A DNA stretch of 16,875 nt from Octopus sinensis. Taxonomy: Eukaryota. Positions 6 through 16,875 of this stretch are shown piece after piece. The stretch is taken from the NCBI RefSeq assembly GCF_006345805.1, contig NW_021825009.1, positions 1 to 16,875 of the forward strand. Reading direction: 5' to 3'. A program made the position numbers and the translations under genes. Each line of letters starts with the position of its first letter. Position 1 is the stretch's first letter. Under the pieces are notes generated by a model. The model had not been told where the DNA came from and did not search any database. It was given only the letters and a program-made list of their open reading frames with translations.

Positions 6-500
6 ATATAATGATGACGATTATGATGATGATGATGATGATAAGGAGGAGGAAGAGGAGGAAGAGGAGGAATAAGGGACGGTGGCAACGATGATGATGA
101 TGAGGAGCAGGAGGGGGGAGGAGGGGGAAGCGGTGTTGACAACGATGATGATGATGATGATGATGATGATAATGAGGAAGATGAGGAATAAAGGGCGGTG
201 GCAACGACGACGATGATGATGATGAGGAGGAGGAGGAGGAGGGATGCGGTGATGACGACGATGATGATGATGGTTAAAAAACATGCCGAAGAATACGACG
301 GTGATGAAGGAGATGACTGATGTTTTCATGATGATGATGATGACGACGGTGGTGAGGATGATGAGGATGAGAACGACGGCAGCGATGGCGAAAACGATGA
401 TGATGATGAAAAAGATTATGCTACTGATAGTTAAACCCATGCTTAATACTAAATAGGAAAACGGCAGTGACAACAACAACAACAACAACAATAATAATAT
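6..500. repeat. Degenerate trinucleotide low-complexity tract (GAT/GAG/GAC, ending in CAA/AAT)
   Basis: Runs of gatgatgat, gaggaggag, gacgacgat and caacaacaa are visible. The 156-aa minus ORF (poly-I/H/S/P) is the translation of these repeats. Confidence 0.9.
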
Positions 501-939
501 TGAAAAATAGTAATCATGGAGGTGGTGGTGGTGGACGTGAGGATCTTGTTGGCGTAATAACGCCGATGGGATTGTGGTATAGGTGGTGGCGCTGAGGAAG
601 ACGTAGTGAGTGGTGGCGGTGATTACGTATCAAAATGTTGGTCCAATGTGCCAAAAAATCTGCTATTGACGGACGTAGAGCAGTCGTTGACCCCTTTCTG
701 GCCTTTTCGCTTTCAAATTTGATGAGAAAGGCAGCAACGGTGTAGGGAAATAGTAAAAATAATAAAAGAAAAGGGAAAAAAATTCCGAAAAGAAAAAGGC
801 GAACAAAACATTAAGTGTCTTTTACATTTGGACGCCATTTTAGGACTTCATTATTTTCTTTCGTTTACACAGCAGCCATTTTGGTTTTTAAATTTTGTTC
901 CCTGTTTGTGTTGTGCCTGCATACCTGTGTGCTGCGGAC

Positions 940-1006
940 GGCTATATGTGTATCAAATGCATGCATGTGTGTTTGTATGTGTGTGTGTGTATTTATATGT
1001 ATATAT

Positions 1007-1048
<42 letters not shown>

Positions 1049-2098
1049 ACACATACATATGCATATGTATATATATATATCAATGCGGCTATGCTTACAC
1101 ACGTGTATATATGCATATATATATATACATATATGTATATATATATATGCATATATATCTATACATATATGTATACATATATATACATACGAATATATGC
1201 ATATACATGTATATATATATATATATACACACCCATATCTATATCTATGTATTCATATATATATATATATATATATGATGGGGTGTGTGTGTATTTGTAT
1301 ATATTTGTCTGCATATCTGTAAATGTATGTATACACACGCACATATGTCTATATATACAAATTTATGTGCGTATTCTGTATGCTTGCACATACACATATG
1401 CATATAATTCCAGGCACACACACTTGCACACATACGAAATATGTGTGTGTGTGTTTGTGCGTGTGTACACACGAGATTTTGGTAGAACAAATAGAATTCA
1501 ATACGAATATACAGACATTTTCTTTATAGATTTTTTAAACTTTTTATTTTTTGAATCGTTGTTGTTTAAAATTTCTGCCGATTAAAAAACAAATATTTTT
1601 GTGAGTATGCATATATATACGTATGTATATATATGCATACGTATATATATATATATATTACATACATGCATACATACATATATGTATACATGTATATATA
1701 ATATATATATATATATATACATATGTATGGATATATACATATGTATGGATATATATGTATATATACATACTACATGCATATATATATATATATATATTGT
1801 ATATATATCTATATATCTATCTATCTATATATAGATATAAATGTATATACATGTATGTATGTATGTATGTATGTATGTATGTATATATATGCATATATAT
1901 ATCCTAGTGTAATATATTTTTGTGTGTGTTTAATCGTACAATTTTCTGAGTGATTAACTCTGAGTATTTGCGTGTGTGTGTGTGTGTCCGTGCGTATACG
2001 TGTGTGCATGTATTCGTTTGTCTATATGTACCTGGGTGTGTGCGTGTGAATGTGAGCATGTTCGTGGATTTGGCCCTGTATGCATGTTTGTATGTGTA

Positions 2099-2169
<71 letters not shown>

Positions 2170-2830
2170 ATATATAGACGTGTGTGTGCATGTTTGTATA
2201 TGTATACATATCTACGTAATCACACACATATACATATATGTATATATGCCTTTATAGTTGTCTATCTGAGTGTGTGTGTGTATGAAGATGTATGTGGGGC
2301 TTTGTGTGTGTATGTGCGTGTGTGTAAGAGTGTGTGTCCATGTCGTAATACCAATACGAGTGCGCAGGCGCATTGCAGTCTGTAACTATGTATATATATG
2401 TATGGCTATACGACTATGTATAGCTATGTACGAATGTGAGATTTGTCTGTGTGTGTACGTGTGTGTGTGCCCGTGTGTAGGTCTAACTACAAACGTATGC
2501 GTGTATATGTATGTGGGTGAGCGTATATGCGTGTGTGCATGTGTGTATATGTTCGTTCGCCTGTATCACATATCGTGTGTATATGTGTGTTTGTGTATAT
2601 AGGTATGCATGTGTGTGTGTGTATGTATGTCTAGTAGTTGCCTATATGTACGCCCTCCACATAAACACACACATACTCACAGACACACACATACAGTGAC
2701 GTACATACACACGTACGAATGACATGCACATACGTACATCAAGACATAACGGCACACACGCAATACACACGTGCTTAAATATATACGCATATTCAAACGC
2801 ACGTATTTACATATATATACACAGAAATTA
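940..2830. repeat. Compound microsatellite field (TA)n/(TG)n/(CA)n/(TATG)n
   Basis: Nearly continuous alternating purine-pyrimidine repeats with short unique spacers. The ORFs here are YI/CV/HT repeat translations. Confidence 0.95.
2099..2168. repeat. Pure (TATC)n/(GATA)n tetranucleotide microsatellite
   Basis: About 17 uninterrupted tcta units. Confidence 0.97.
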
Positions 2831-2848
2831 ACATACACGTTCATCCAA

Positions 2849-2943
2849 GAGTGGCTGTGTGGTAAGTAACTTGCTTACCAACCAGATGGTTCCGGGTTCA
2901 GTCCCATTACGTGGCACCTTGGACATGTGTCTTCTACTATAGC
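2849..2943 (+). mobile_element. tRNA-derived SINE family A, 5' fragment
   Basis: gagtggctgtgtggtaagtaacttgcttaccaaccagatggttccgggttcagtccc...tcttctactatagc aligns with 3002-3096 of the adjacent full copy, with a few substitutions. Confidence 0.9.
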
Positions 2944-2994
2944 GTCAGGCTATGTACATACCTACGTCTATATGTATATATACACGCATATATA

Positions 2995-3404
2995 GGCGCA
3001 GGAGTGGCTGTGTGGTAAGTAGCTTGTCTACCAACCACATGGTTCCGGGTTCAGTCCCACTGCGTGGCAACTTGGGCAAGTGTCTTCTACTATAGCCTCG
3101 GGCCGGCCAAAGCCTTGTGAGTGGATTTGGTAAGACGGAAACTGAAAGAGCCCGTCGTATATATGTATATATATATATATGTGTGTGTGTGTTGTGTGTC
3201 TGTATTTGTCCCCCTAGCATTGCTTGACAACCGATGCTGGTGTGTTTATGTCCCCGTCACTTAGCGGTTCGGCAAAAGAGACCGATAGAATAAGTACTGG
3301 GCTTACAAAAGAATAAGTCCCGGGGGTCGAGTTGCTCGATTAAAGGCGGTGCTCCAGCATGGCCGCAGTCAAATGACTGAAACAAGTAAAAGAGTAAAAG
3401 AGTA
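2995..3404 (+). mobile_element. tRNA-derived SINE family A, full length (about 410 bp; octopus-type, CORE-like central segment)
   Basis: A-box-like TGGCTGTGTGG (3005-3015), B-box-like GGTTCAGTCCC (3048-3058), CORE-like CTTGGGCAAGTGTCTT, an internal (TA)n(TG)n tract and a short-repeat tail agtaaaagagtaaaagagta. Homologous pieces occur at 2849, 8979, 11141 and 14426. Confidence 0.9.
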
Positions 3405-3574
3405 TATGGGTACAGGAAACCAAAAAAACCTTGAACACAATGAGAAACGAAAACATAAAAGCAAAAACATGGAAACGAACTTTTTTTTCAAACAACGAAA
3501 AAACAGAGTACAAGGCATACAACACAAGGAATATTCCCCTTCTTCAGTTGTCCCTGTTTCGTCTACTCCGGGTT

Positions 3575-3742
3575 TACAGTTTTTCAACATGTATAAGGAA
3601 TCCCCAAATTTGTGGGGCTTAAAATTAAAAAAAAAAACGGTTTTGTAAGGGATTACAAGACTATCCATGTATAAGAAACTCCCATGTTTTTTAACCTAAT
3701 TTTAGACAAAAAGGGTACACTTATATACGTTAAAATATGCTA
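3575..3742. mobile_element. Degenerate MITE with Tc1/mariner-superfamily (Tc2/pogo-like) termini
   Basis: Left end tacagtttttcaacatgtataag matches the reverse complement of right end cttatatacgttaaaatatgcta at 16/23 positions, with TA at both ends. The catgtataag motif is repeated internally near 3666. Confidence 0.45.
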
Positions 3743-8828: not shown

Positions 8829-8978
8829 TCATCATTTAACTTGCTCTACTAACCTAGCCTCCATACTTCGACCCTCTTAAATACATTCACACAACACAGC
8901 AATTCACACATACCACTCCCTGTCTTAAATCATCTTCGAGGTACAGGCACACACCTATACCTGTTTCTACACATCTAC

Positions 8979-9177
8979 ACTCTTTACTCTTTTACTTGTT
9001 TCAGTCATTTGACTGCGGCCATGCTGGAGTACTGCCTTCAATCGAGCAACTCGACCCCAGGACTTATTCTTTTGTAAGCCCAGTACTTATTCTATCGGTC
9101 TCTTTGCCGAACCGCTAAGTAACGGGGACATAAACACACCAGCATCGGTTGTCAAGCGATGTTGGGGACAAACACAA

Positions 9178-9228
<51 letters not shown>

Positions 9229-9311
9229 ACGGGCTTCTTTCAGTTTCTGTCTACCAAATCCACTCACAAGGCTTTGGTCAGCCCGAGGCTATAGTAGAAG
9301 ACACTTGCCCA
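8979..9311 (-). mobile_element. SINE family A, 5'-truncated copy
   Basis: Reverse complement of about 3073-3404: tail actcttttacttgtttcagtc through internal (CA)(TA) to gaagacacttgccca. It lacks the tRNA head. Confidence 0.92.
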
Positions 9312-9553
9312 CGTTCACTTTTCTTACATAACTCATACCACGGTGCTGCCATTAGTCCTCTTCTTCGCTCTCTCAGTTAGTTTCCCTTTATTTTAATGAA
9401 AGACTTAACGCCCGAAACGTTCATCTATCTCTTTTTACTCTTACGTTTTAAGGTAATACCGTATTTGTTAAACCGTGTCTCTCCTGAGTTGCTTCTAAAT
9501 TTTCACTGTACTCACACGATACATTCATACATGTATTTATGTTTGTATGCATG

Positions 9554-9554
<1 letters not shown>

Positions 9555-9589
<35 letters not shown>

Positions 9590-9722
9590 AACATATATTA
9601 TATATATATATATATATACACAAACATATAATATATATAATTATATATATATATATATATATACACACAAACATATATATTATATATATACACAAACTAT
9701 ATACTATATATATATATATATA
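9555..9722. repeat. (TA)n-CACAAACA minisatellite, left part
   Basis: Repeated tatatatacacaaacatata units; the same unit resumes at 10352. Confidence 0.9.
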
Positions 9723-9789
9723 TAAAACATTATTGGTGAATTGAAGAAATGGAGCTGGACGCAGATTGAACAGAAATCGTTATATTTCA

Positions 9790-9869
9790 TTCTACACGTG
9801 TTTCGAAAGGCACAAATTACCAAAATCCGATTGAATAATGGGACCATATTGTGTCTTTCTCTTCAGGAA
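9790..9869 (-). ncRNA. Type I hammerhead ribozyme motif (minus-strand copy)
   Basis: Exact reverse complement of 10060-10139; predicted cleavage between 9793 and 9792. Confidence 0.8.
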
Positions 9870-10059
9870 GAAAAAAGGAAATCCGTTGGAAAAACAAAAA
9901 CAGAACAGAGGCAGAGCAAAAAACAAATCGAACTGTGCTCCTAAGAGCCCATGGCGAAACTCTTTCTGTTTCGCCATGGGCTCTTAGGAGCACAGTTCGA
10001 TTTGTTTTTTGCTCTGCCTCTGTTCTGTTTTTGGTTTTTCCAACGGATTTCCTTTTTTC

Positions 10060-10139
10060 TTCCTGAAGAGAAAGACACAATATGGTCCCATTATTCAATC
10101 GGATTTTGGTAATTTGTGCCTTTCGAAACACGTGTAGAA
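10060..10139 (+). ncRNA. Type I hammerhead ribozyme motif (plus-strand copy)
   Basis: Stem I TTC/GAA; core CTGAAGA (10063-10069); stem II GAAAGACACAA (10070-10080)/TTGTGCCTTTC (10114-10124), 10 of 11 pairs; GAAA (10125-10128); palindromic stem III ACACGTGT; GUA triplet (10134-10136). Confidence 0.82.
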
Positions 10140-10351
10140 TGAAATAAAACGATTTCTGTTCAATCTGCGTTCAGCCCATTCTTCATTCACCAATAATGTT
10201 TTAATTTCAATTATCCGCACCAACGCACGGTTGCAACGCCAGATGGTTGTACCTCCAACCGTGCTGTTCACTGCTGTGATTTTGCTACTAAGGTATCGGT
10301 TAAACTTTTGATTAATCTACTACAAGATTATTCATCTTTCTATTTCACATA

Positions 10352-10452
10352 ATATATATATATATATATATACACAAACATATATATATATATATACACA
10401 AACATATATATATATATATATATACACACAAACATATATATATATATATATA
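10352..10452. repeat. (TA)n-CACAAACA minisatellite, right part
   Basis: Same unit and orientation as 9555-9722. Confidence 0.9.
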
Positions 10453-10454
10453 AA

Positions 10455-11020
10455 TTGGGTTGTCCGGAAAGATCGTACCGATATATTGTGGCTTAACTTT
10501 CGACTTATTTTAGAACATGGTTGAGTCCATATAATAGGATTTTACTACATCTCCATTTAGAGTACAGATTAAGCTATCTTTTCGTGGAAGAAGGTTTATG
10601 TTCCTATAACCTGTGTTAATTCTGTAACCCTTTAAAATGGAAGATAAGAAAGTTCATTTTCGGCACTTGATCCTTTGGCAACCAGACAAAAATTGCTGCA
10701 GCTCGGCTTTGATGTGTTACCCCACCCTCCATATTCACCAGATATTGCTCCTTCGGATTTCCACTTATTCAGGTCTCTGCAGAATAGTCTTAATGGTAAA
10801 AATTTCAATTCCTTGGATGACGTAAAAAGATACCTTGATGAATTCTTTGCCATGAAATCACCTCGTTTCTGGGAAGAGGGTATTTTCAAGTTAAAGGAGA
10901 GGTGGAGACGCATTGTGCAACAAAATGGTTCATATTTGGTTGATTAAAAATGTAATGGCAAGTATTTATTGACCTTTTTCTTCCCTTTAAAAATCGGCAC
11001 GAACTTTCCGGACAAACCAA
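10455..11020 (+). mobile_element. Internally deleted mariner DNA transposon (566 bp, mellifera-subfamily-like)
   Basis: 28-bp TIRs ttgggttgtccggaaagatcgtaccgat (10455-10482) and atcggcacgaactttccggacaaaccaa (10993-11020) match at 25/28. TA lies on the right and AA on the left, within TA tracts. Transposase remnants are inside. Confidence 0.93.
10637..10947 (+). pseudogene. Mariner transposase remnant: N-terminal start joined out of frame to the C-terminal ~90 aa
   Basis: MEDKKVHFRHL at 10637 resembles mariner N-termini. 10675-10947 gives LPHPPYSPDIAPSDFHLFRSL...GIFKLKERWRRIVQQNGSY, which contains the YSPDLAPxD motif. The HTH, WVPHEL and first two catalytic Asp residues are missing. Confidence 0.92.
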
Positions 11021-11140
11021 TATATATATGAGGCTTTTACATGCCGAAATCTACTTGGTGAAATTAATGATTATTCCAAATTAATTAATTTCACCCTATA
11101 TTATTACTGATAACCATATATATATATATATATATATATA

Positions 11141-11301
11141 TACAACGGACATCTTTAAGTTTTTGCCTACCAAATCCACCCACGAGGCTTTGGTTCGCCT
11201 GAGGCTCTCGTTAGAAGATACTTGTCGAAGGTGTCACGTAATGGGACTGAACTCGGAACCATGTGGTTGGGAAGCAAGCTTTTTACCACGCAGCTGCACC
11301 T
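11141..11301 (-). mobile_element. SINE family A, diverged 5' half
   Basis: Reverse complement of about 3000-3160 (taccaaatccac...gggactgaactcggaaccatgtggttgg...ttaccacgcagc), ending at the internal (TA)n. Confidence 0.85.
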
Positions 11302-12023: not shown

Positions 12024-12690
12024 GCTTTGTATGTTGCTTTGCATTTGTACAAGTTGGCTCCAAGTCTCATCCAGAGACCTCAAGAGACGCTCATGCTAGA
12101 AGTTCATGTTGGTGTTATGCTTAGGGTGTCATATATTAGGTTTTGCACTTAGTATTGTTCTAGAGAATGTGTAAGAAAATTGTGAGTTTGTTTTAAAATT
12201 TGAGATTACCTAGACAGTATTTAACTTAGGATATGGGCAGTTCTCATGATCACTATCTTTTGAATTTCTGCCATTTTGGAGTTTCCTGGTATCTGGGTTA
12301 AGTAGTAAATATCCCCTTTTTCTATCATTCCTAGGACACCTATGACAACAGTCATAGTCTTCAGGTTCCACATTTTTCCAATTTCTATTTCAAGATCTTT
12401 ATACTTGCTCAGTTTTTGATAGGTCTTAACAGATACATATATCTCGATTGGGACAGTCATATCGATGAGGAGGCTTGATTTTTGTCTGAAGTCCTTCGAT
12501 ATAATGTCTGGCCTATGCGCATCAATCTTTCTGTCAGTTTGAATGGTGAAGTTCCAGAGGAGTGAGATGTGATCATTTTCAAGCTGGAGGTGGATTGTGT
12601 TCCCACCAGTTTTTATCATGGGCAGGTCCAGGATTTTTGCAAATTACCCAGTGAATATATTGTGCAGCTCTATCATGCCTGTTGAGATAC
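12024..12690 (-). mobile_element. R4/Dong-like non-LTR retrotransposon 3' fragment with restriction-like endonuclease (RLE) domain (copy B)
   Basis: Frameshifted translation YLNRHDRAAQYIHW...WWEHNPPP / LENDHISLLWNFTIQTDRKIDAHRPDII...LLIDMTVP...KLSKYKDL...VVIGVLG...TAHIL gives the RHD, PD-(D/E) and KxxKY motifs of RLE-clade LINEs. A 3' UTR and (TAA)n follow. Confidence 0.88.
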
Positions 12691-14569: not shown

Positions 14570-14795
14570 GGTTGGCAGAAACGTTAGCACGCCGGGAGAG
14601 ATGCGTAGCCGAATTTCGTCTGCCGTTACGTTCTGAGTTCAAATTCCGCCGAGGTCGACTTTGCCTTTCATCCTTTTGGGGTCGATAAATTAAGTACCAG
14701 TTACGCACTGGGGTCGATGTAATCGACTTAATCCCTTTGTCTGTCCTTGTTTGTCCTCTCTATGTTTAGCCCCTTGTGGGCAATAAAGAAACAGG
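14570..14795 (+). mobile_element. tRNA-derived SINE family C (Deu/Nin-like central domain)
   Basis: tRNA-like head tggcagaaacgttagcac, B-box-like GAGTTCAAATTCC (14635-14647) and central gcctttcatcctt..ggggtcgataaattaagtaccag. Several reverse-strand homologues lie downstream. Confidence 0.88.
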
Positions 14796-14821
14796 AATAA
14801 TTTAGCGCTGGGCCAAACCTG

Positions 14822-15018: not shown

Positions 15019-15442
15019 AATCCTTTCCTTCAACAATGCGCGCAAGCCTGGTATTTTGGGGAAGCGAGATAAGTCGATTACATTGAAACCCCCCACCACC
15101 AACTCCACAATGTTCAGTTGGTTCTTATTTCATCGAGGCCCGAAAGAATGAAAGGCAAAGTCGACCTCAGCGGAATTTGAACTCAGAACCTAAAGACGGA
15201 CGAAATACCTATTTCTTTATTACCCACAAGGGGCTAAACACAGAGAGGACAAACAAGGACAGACAAACAGATTAAGTCGATTACATCGACCCCAGTGCGT
15301 AACTGGTACTCAATTTATCGACCCCGAAAGGATGAAAGGCAAAGTCGACCCCGGCGGAATTTGAACTCAGAACGTAACGGCAGACGAAATACTGCTAAGC
15401 ATTTCGCCCGGCGTGCTAACCTTTCTGCCAGCTCACCGCCTT
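15019..15442 (-). mobile_element. SINE family C, dimeric arrangement (full monomer 15208-15442 plus headless second monomer 15019-15208)
   Basis: 15208-15442 is the reverse complement of 14570-14795 with the complete 5' end. The block gaaaggcaaagtcgacc..gcggaatttgaactcagaac occurs twice, near 15150 and 15334. Confidence 0.88.
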
Positions 15443-15936: not shown

Positions 15937-16450
15937 AAGACCGAAGAAATACCGCTAAGCGTTTTGGACGGCGCGCTAACAATTTTATCAGCTCGCCCCT
16001 TTATTAATCCTTTCTATTATAGGCAGACGGCCTGAAATTTGGGGGAGGGGACGAGTCGATTACATCAACCCCTATCGTTTCAGTGATACTTAATTTATCG
16101 CCCTCGAAAAGATGAAAGGCGAAGTCGACCTCTGCAGAATTTGAACTCGGAACGTAGCAACGGGCGAAATATCGCAAAACACTTCGTCAAACGTGCTAAC
16201 GATTCCGCCAGCTCCCCGCCTTCTTTATTTCTAATAACGGTTTCAAATGTTGGCACAAGGCCAGCAATTTCGGTTGGAGGGGGTTAAGTCGATTACATCG
16301 ACCCCAGTGCTAAACTGGTCCTTATTTTATCGACCCCAAAATGGGTGAGGGGTAAAGTCAACCTTGGCGAAATTTTGAAGGCAGAGCTGAAAGACGGACG
16401 AAATGTCGCTCAGCATTTTGTCCGGCATGCTAACGAATCTGCCAACTCAG
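15937..16450 (-). mobile_element. Cluster of three diverged SINE family C copies (15937-16001 head only, 16006-16222, 16236-16450)
   Basis: Each ends in a gctaac...gcca(g/a)ctc-like head. The two longer copies contain agtcgattacatc.accc...ttatcg.ccc..aa..atg...aaagtc.acct. Confidence 0.85.
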
Positions 16451-16466: not shown

Positions 16467-16875
16467 AATGTAGTCTTAGATACACTACGTCAGAATAAAA
16501 GACAGGATGGCCACAGATGGAACGGCTTTGATCATAGGCCTGCTGGATCAGGACTAAGCAACAACAAGGAAGAACACATTTGATAATGTAGTCCTAGATA
16601 CACTATGCCAGGATAAAAGACAGGATGGCCACAGATGGAACGGCTTTGATCATAGGCCTGCTGGATCAGGACTAAGCAACAACAAGGAAGAACACATTAG
16701 ATAATGTAGTCCTAGATACACTATGCCAGGATAAAAGACAGGATGGCCACAGATGGAACGGCTTTGATCATAGGCCTGCTGGATCAGGACTAAGCAACAA
16801 CAAGGAAGAACACATTTGATAATGTAGTCCTAGATACACTATGCCAGGATAAAAGACAGGATGGCCACAGATGGA
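16467..16875 (+). repeat. 118-bp tandem repeat array, about 3.5 units, running off the window
   Basis: Units begin aatgtagtc at 16467, 16585, 16703 and 16821. Units 2-4 are almost identical. Confidence 0.97.

Follow-up and report, generated by a model that had tools for sequence, protein, structure and literature searches.

How does a stretch of octopus DNA come to carry one and the same hammerhead ribozyme motif on both strands, once in each arm of a long palindrome? We analyzed a 16,875-nt stretch of Octopus sinensis DNA (hereafter the window; contig NW_021825009.1 of assembly GCF_006345805.1) in which this arrangement occurs. Alignment confirmed the palindrome that a sequence-only reading had proposed, with arms at 9723–9960 and 9968–10203 that are 97.5% alike over 239 columns (two mismatches and four one-base gaps) and a spacer of 7 nt. 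The identical 80-nt motif in each arm and the splitting of a (TA)n-CACAAACA repeat, which flanks the insertion on the left and right, were borne out as well, as was the longer right arm, which extends 148 nt past the mirror of the left arm and ends at 10349–10351 (Table 1). In the palindrome, the ribozyme-bearing, truncated 3' end of a 3.64-kb Penelope-like retrotransposon (Penelope-like element, PLE) is present twice, back to back. Our analyses suggested that it very probably arose when a young Hydra-like octopus PLE was inserted head-to-head in 5'-truncated form, with both cut (TA)n ends likely priming reverse transcription of the element RNA. The locus itself is ordinary, one of many similar insertions.

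Table 1. Features of the palindromic insertion and its target repeat, in window coordinates.
Feature	Position	Strand	Element position or basis
Left half of (TA)n-CACAAACA target repeat	9554..9722		Sequence
Inverted arm	9723..9960	-	Unit 3256-3494; abuts (TA)n at site B, the second of the fixed 3' ends
Hammerhead motif, minimal type I, identical to + copy	9790..9869	-	Sequence match
Junction	9961..9967		Between arms; pattern recurs at other loci
Forward arm, pseudo-LTR and tail	9968..10351	+	Unit 3257-3641; ends at main 3' end (site A) against (TA)n
Putative internal promoter	9968..9999	+	Initiator-like CAGTT, G at +24, DPE-like AGTTC at +28 to +32
Minimal type I hammerhead	10060..10139	+	Predicted cut after A10136
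148-nt tail between fixed 3' ends B and A	10204..10351	+	Copy comparison
Right half of (TA)n-CACAAACA target repeat	10352..10452		Sequence

The inversion could in principle have been produced by assembly or by long reads, since the window is an entire 16.9-kb unplaced contig and the exact junction is spanned by none of the listed contigs (four runs examined, all contigs). However, the two arms end at two different fixed positions of the element, the flanks are not mirrored, the same design is common to 54 of 69 sampled loci, and contigs of an independent sequencing run (X5, from a different study of a different organism) contain further joints that depart from this centre, all of which makes an artefact extremely improbable. 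Sequences of the stretch were present in 20 of 24 listed sequencing runs from 10 studies, none of them recorded as RNA. Compared with the family unit and the left arm, the right arm has three single-base gaps, near 10175, 10178 and 10184, at which the differing sequencing-run contigs carry the extra base; these gaps may be assembly errors. One contig starting at 10137, beside the predicted cut, was discounted, because its overlap with the neighbouring contig amounts to about one word length, RNA ends are not visible in contigs, and the RNA status of its run is a guess.

Several other repeats were observed in the window. Bordering the split (TA)n target repeat on its right is a short element (10454–11020) with inverted ends flanked by TA, and its 99-aa frame (10648–10947), which gave no Pfam match, presumably resembles the C-terminal part of a Tc1/mariner transposase. 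A 140-aa frame on the minus strand (12221–12643) with a PDI...K-like motif resembles what we take to be the restriction-like endonuclease end of a non-LTR retrotransposon. The segments 14573–14798 and 15205–15430 form a 226-nt inverted repeat (93%) made of opposite copies of a dispersed, probably SINE-like repeat, at least three more partial copies of which lie at 15119–15208, 16054–16222 and 16280–16449. Another dispersed repeat, 90% alike and inverted, is found beside microsatellites at 3069–3412 and 8968–9315, and also at 11116–11294. Finally, a 118-bp tandem repeat (16467–16875; 3.5 copies, 97%) runs off the contig end.

The hammerhead pattern matched twice in the window, both times within the palindrome, and in 0 of 200 block-shuffled windows. 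The plus-strand motif consists of a 3-bp stem I, the CUGAAGA core, a stem II in which 10 of 11 positions pair and one is an A-C mismatch, a loop II of 33 nt, GAAA, and a 2-bp stem III with a palindromic loop; it is a minimal type I hammerhead and not the canonical one with an 11-bp stem II that had been supposed at first sight. The Rfam model Hammerhead_1 (RF00163), suggested earlier as a check, recognized the core but scored it at 14.8 bits (E 0.65), below the gathering score of 34; a 51-nt insert in the stem II region of the model is penalized. A scan of all 16,875 nt against Rfam gave 208 matches; the 150 of these that were listed all fell below gathering, included no hammerhead and were rejected as hairpin or microsatellite noise.

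Related hammerheads were located with an alignment-anchored pattern, yielding 60 distinct variants; the full core fits 168 of 190 matches, in which overlapping loci are counted repeatedly and most misses are truncated. Covariation was assessed in 28 of the 60 variants, gap-free and chosen across subfamilies. The core was unchanged in all 28 except at the free position 7, stem II was 91.9% paired with three pairs changed on both sides, and the whole structure was 94.4% paired, compared with 33–50% in slid controls. The covariation support is moderate, since the number of pairs changed on both sides was not above that in shuffles (239 of 500) and the variants are related. RNAalifold predicted one additional, twelfth pair that covaries, together with a conserved hairpin inside loop II, and did not recover stems I and III in these variants. 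The palindrome of stem III was altered in two steps and is self-complementary in all three versions (duplex energies −10.3, −6.0 and −7.0 kcal/mol), in agreement with the dimer-competent stem III read from the window copy. The active monomer fold lies 4.8–9.1 kcal/mol above the minimum-energy fold, and the hammerhead is predicted to be a weak cutter as a monomer, in need of a dimer or of an element protein. It is the ordinary pseudo-LTR ribozyme of the family and not a stand-alone ribozyme device; it lies about 270 nt ahead of the next ATG, and it is present twice at the locus only because both arms span it.

Searches of the 2.72-Gb genome, in which a database protein named for Octopus sinensis finds a 100% match, placed the palindrome within a large family. 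The right arm (373-nt query) gave 985 candidate matches, of which 40 were scored and all 40 were 98–100% identical; the ribozyme 30-mer had 2,777 exact matches (reversed control, 0) and an RT 24-mer had 274. The first 30 loci all share one 3' end base followed by (TA)n, and long copies run upstream into an ORF. The full unit measures 3,642 bp, and an uninterrupted 895-aa ORF of the same subfamily was present in 3 of 20 loci fetched around long open frames (L073, L074 and L075), whose pseudo-LTRs share 96.6–98.5% DNA identity with the right arm. The forward arm is 98.7% identical to the unit of L032 and 98.5% identical to the intact-ORF copy L074, and DNA identity in older subfamilies falls to about 77%. 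The family is young, autonomous and present in thousands of copies. The PLE origin, the young age and the expected linkage to RT/GIY-YIG ORFs were thus upheld, while the notion of a retrozyme-like or special non-coding element was not, as the family is autonomous and the window copy is an ordinary insertion of it, truncated at the 5' end. No description of this octopus PLE family was found in the literature searched, and it may already have an entry in a repeat library.

Units also occur in tandem in L032, and partial tandems form the pseudo-LTRs. A triple tandem lies at G000:C1:193556431-193563719, where an inverted arm is followed by three direct units at a spacing of about 3,635 bp. The tandem junction of L032 (window equivalent 10291 onward) contains a possible splice donor in the tail and a possible acceptor about 20 nt into the next unit; the putative intron of about 90 nt would lie over site A, like the promoter intron of Penelope. 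A search for a spliced genomic copy across site A gave 0 matches with one mismatch allowed, which is neutral on the intron because PLEs keep introns.

Tandem units are also what a non-autonomous, retrozyme-like lineage of short copies, spreading via hammerhead-cleaved circular RNA, might be expected to leave. Such an origin agrees with the excess of short copies (2,777 ribozyme against 274 RT matches) and with the report, in 10.64898/2026.07.22.740005, that non-LTR retrozymes are derivatives of PLE pseudo-LTRs. Nevertheless, no tandem array of short units was found at the window locus, and the arms differ by only 1.5–3.8% from ORF-bearing copies. Truncation points of the family are moreover continuous from unit 219 to 3599, with none at 3420–3429 beside the predicted cut, where only free arms could show them because the search pattern spans the site. 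We therefore regard a retrozyme-like lineage as very improbable. The lack of truncations at 3420–3429 suggested that most templates of the PLE family were probably uncut, as in the anole element.

The 895-aa ORF encodes an RT followed by a C-terminal GIY-YIG endonuclease, for which the alignment shows the motifs YRDD and VY..YIG..R..E..N; neither the octopus protein nor two homologues matched an RT or GIY-YIG model in Pfam, and PDB sequence searches returned nothing informative for the ORF. IRWL (with L in place of K) and SDKT align with the RWK and DKT motifs of six homologues at 33–35% identity. The endonuclease lacks CCHH and reads CNLC..E..N..CPH, that is, CxxC before E and CxH after N. 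Section 11 of Craig et al. (2021, PMC8557442) lists RW, DKT, the absence of CCHH, CxxC/CxH and a CxCX5C linker among the features of the Hydra clade, and the paper ties this linker to (TA)n targeting. CxCX5C was present in all six non-octopus homologues aligned and absent from all three octopus ORFs aligned, which have a long Ser/Asn-rich insert in its place and a second insert after the thumb; the unit of 3,642 bp also exceeds the norm of the clade, which is generally under 3 kb. We name the family Hydra-like only, because the CxCX5C feature fails and the placement is by motifs, not by an RT tree with named members. Insertion into (TA)n is retained despite the lost linker. Fragments of this and of a related PLE (P0001 and P0027) are annotated as 'myb-like protein I' and 'GATA zinc finger domain-containing protein 14-like', which are likely misannotations.

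The architecture of the insertions was examined in 69 cases behind the first 100 listed ribozyme 30-mer matches, all on contig C1. Fifty-four were two-armed and inverted head-to-head, so that the inverted pseudo-LTR recognized in the window is the usual build of the family. Among these, 50 combined one A end (unit 3641) with one B end (about 3494), two fixed 3' ends lying 148 nt apart, and 51 had A/T-rich flanks on both sides. Of 30 divergent ribozyme pairs, 14 lie within 340 bp, and at least five further palindromes with the same centre occurred among the first 100 matches listed in the genome search. In 46 simple A+B cases, the A arm was longer in 15, the B arm was longer in 21 and the arms were symmetric in 10. 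In 8 of the 21 cases with a longer B arm, the A arm starts beyond site B and the arms do not overlap, hence the B arm was not copied from the A cDNA; four further insertions were single arms ending at B without an A arm. These arm statistics fit two primings on RNA.

The same element might instead have acquired its inverted arm by self-priming, through fold-back of the first cDNA or on an antisense template, with the endonuclease trimming the second strand at B, as argued for rotifer Penelope elements in PMC3846280. The 10 symmetric junctions fit fold-back equally well and often lie at short palindromes, and the centre in the window sits at a quasi-palindrome. Self-priming may still explain some of the symmetric copies; as the general origin of the inverted arm we consider it unlikely, because in nearly half of the simple cases it is the B arm that extends further towards 5', sometimes without any overlap, because a B arm can be present alone, and because a G found at −1, described below, fits a capped sense template.

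The centre of the window palindrome coincides with a truncation hot spot of the family, as 22 of the 62 truncations in unit 3100–3400 fall within the 15 nt of 3249–3263 (p 1e-13). The intact element has an initiator-like CAGTT at +1, which the junction damages in the window copy, and the exact spacing of the DPE-like motif was held in the youngest subfamily only; the Inr and DPE consensus motifs applied to the octopus centre are those that we take to hold in Drosophila. Penelope itself has both Inr and DPE, according to PMC2377424. Sixteen of 32 flagged rows read AGTTT at +1; once three read-through rows had been removed, 13 arms starting exactly at +1 were left, and 7 of them show a G at −1 in place of the element's C. 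A test on 19 loci fetched afterwards gave G in 6 of 9 exact-+1 arms. When both sets are pooled, 13 of 22 arms carry G at −1 (p 0.0007 at a 25% background) and 9 another base. A cap copied as C would yield such a G, which is also explicable by microhomology with the partner arm in several junctions. Exact 24-mers across the hot spot numbered 927 just downstream and 1,141 just upstream, without a drop, a comparison that is confounded by subfamily differences. At the window junction, the left arm contributes its unit position 3256 (+1) as the first base, and the second reads G at −1 on this arm instead of the C of the element; this G is likely cap-derived, and the remaining junction bases are likely a short slipped template jump. 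Taken as sequence evidence, the centre, which lies inside the pseudo-LTR, is likely the element's own transcription start.

If so, any RNA driven by the element would be transcribed away from the centre and include just one sense arm. This bears on the earlier suggestion that dsRNA masks the ribozymes, which would apply to read-through RNA from outside, predicted to fold into a hairpin of −412.5 kcal/mol, and likely not to the element's own transcripts. The stability of this hairpin is also what speaks for the palindrome being a functional host switch in which long dsRNA masks two ribozymes. The same build in most insertions of the family, with other palindromes sharing its centre, the ORF list around the locus, which has no evident host gene and only repeats and transposon remnants, and the lack of any sign of selection on the locus leave a host switch with hardly any probability.

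The data on the octopus family point to two primings on capped, uncleaved sense RNA, and we infer the following course for the insertion in the window. First, the endonuclease of the element would cut both strands of (TA)n. Second, one 3'-OH would serve as the primer at site A, and its counterpart would do so at site B. Third, both cDNAs would reach the capped 5' end of the transcript at unit 3256, where the RT may add C opposite the cap, and the two cDNA ends would be joined via a few bases of homology. The results of Frangieh et al. (2024, PMC11167929) include a purified PLE protein that cleaves and extends both target strands and uses uncleaved RNA, and an RT that in vitro starts at two internal sites defining the tail. 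More tentatively, and with somewhat less than even confidence, the octopus family could be regarded as a natural readout of PLE integration, in which the two ends of a double-strand cut in (TA)n prime reverse transcription of sense RNA that is capped and uncleaved, starting from fixed sites separated by 148 nt, before the cDNAs are joined; the template may be a pair of RNAs held together by the palindromic stem III. If true, this would replace the account of head-to-head pseudo-LTRs by self-priming or an antisense template, and would demonstrate that (TA)n targeting needs no zinc-finger linker of the kind proposed as its mediator.

The head-to-head architecture as such has been published, including for the Hydra clade, and inverted 5'-truncated copies with a one-sided tail are already described in PMC8557442. 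New are the family variant, with no linker zinc finger, a 148-nt tail and a 33-nt loop II, and the copy-level evidence for two primings on capped sense RNA. The family is of modest importance; its copies provide statistics on how inverted structures form, a matter left open by the 2021 and 2024 papers. In this family, (TA)n targeting is also uncoupled from the linker zinc finger, and the unusually long loop II makes its hammerhead a test case for dimer- or protein-assisted cleavage.

Among known systems, the C-terminal EN+ PLEs of the Hydra clade, such as Penelope-13_HM and Hydra-1_Obim, share with the octopus family, in the account of Craig et al. (2021, PMC8557442), a single ORF with RT followed by GIY-YIG, the motifs RW, DKT, YRDD, CxxC and CxH, the absence of CCHH, a hammerhead near the 3' end and (TA)n targets. 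The supplement of that paper shows for Penelope-13_HM an inverted 5'-truncated copy with a hammerhead on each strand, as found here. In contrast, the octopus unit reaches 3.64 kb as against under about 3 kb and has lost CxCX5C, its tail measures 148 nt where the PLE tails described there are 30–40 bp, and its loop II has 33 nt, compared with 3–10 nt in the Hydra rows of File S2; compared by eye, Hydra-1_Obim differs from the octopus family in its N-terminus and hammerhead.

The anole element PAc (Poseidon_Ac of Anolis), as portrayed by Frangieh et al. (2024, PMC11167929), shares two internal RT starts that define the tail, the cutting and extension of both strands at AT-rich DNA, an uncleaved RNA template, and a hammerhead that is weak without protein. 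It belongs to another clade, with a tail of 30–40 bp and a hammerhead overlapping the ORF start, whereas the octopus tail has 148 nt and the octopus hammerhead precedes the next ATG by some distance. PAc sites are said there to be non-homologous to the target, while both octopus ends border on element sequence that is rich in A/T. With Penelope of Drosophila virilis and the elements of Adineta vaga (PMC2377424 and PMC3846280), the octopus family has in common inverted pseudo-LTRs that are arranged head-to-head and meet at palindromic junctions, an Inr/DPE promoter inside the element (putative in the octopus) and Asn-rich inserts between RT and EN. Their junctions were read there as self-priming on antisense RNA, whereas the octopus statistics favour two primings on sense RNA. 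Lastly, non-LTR retrozymes, as described in PMC7229834, share the type I hammerhead, the versions of which with a weak stem III act as dimers. Retrozymes are direct tandem repeats of 150–450 bp with canonical hammerheads and no ORF, whereas in the octopus insertion it is a coding element that has been copied in truncated and inverted form.
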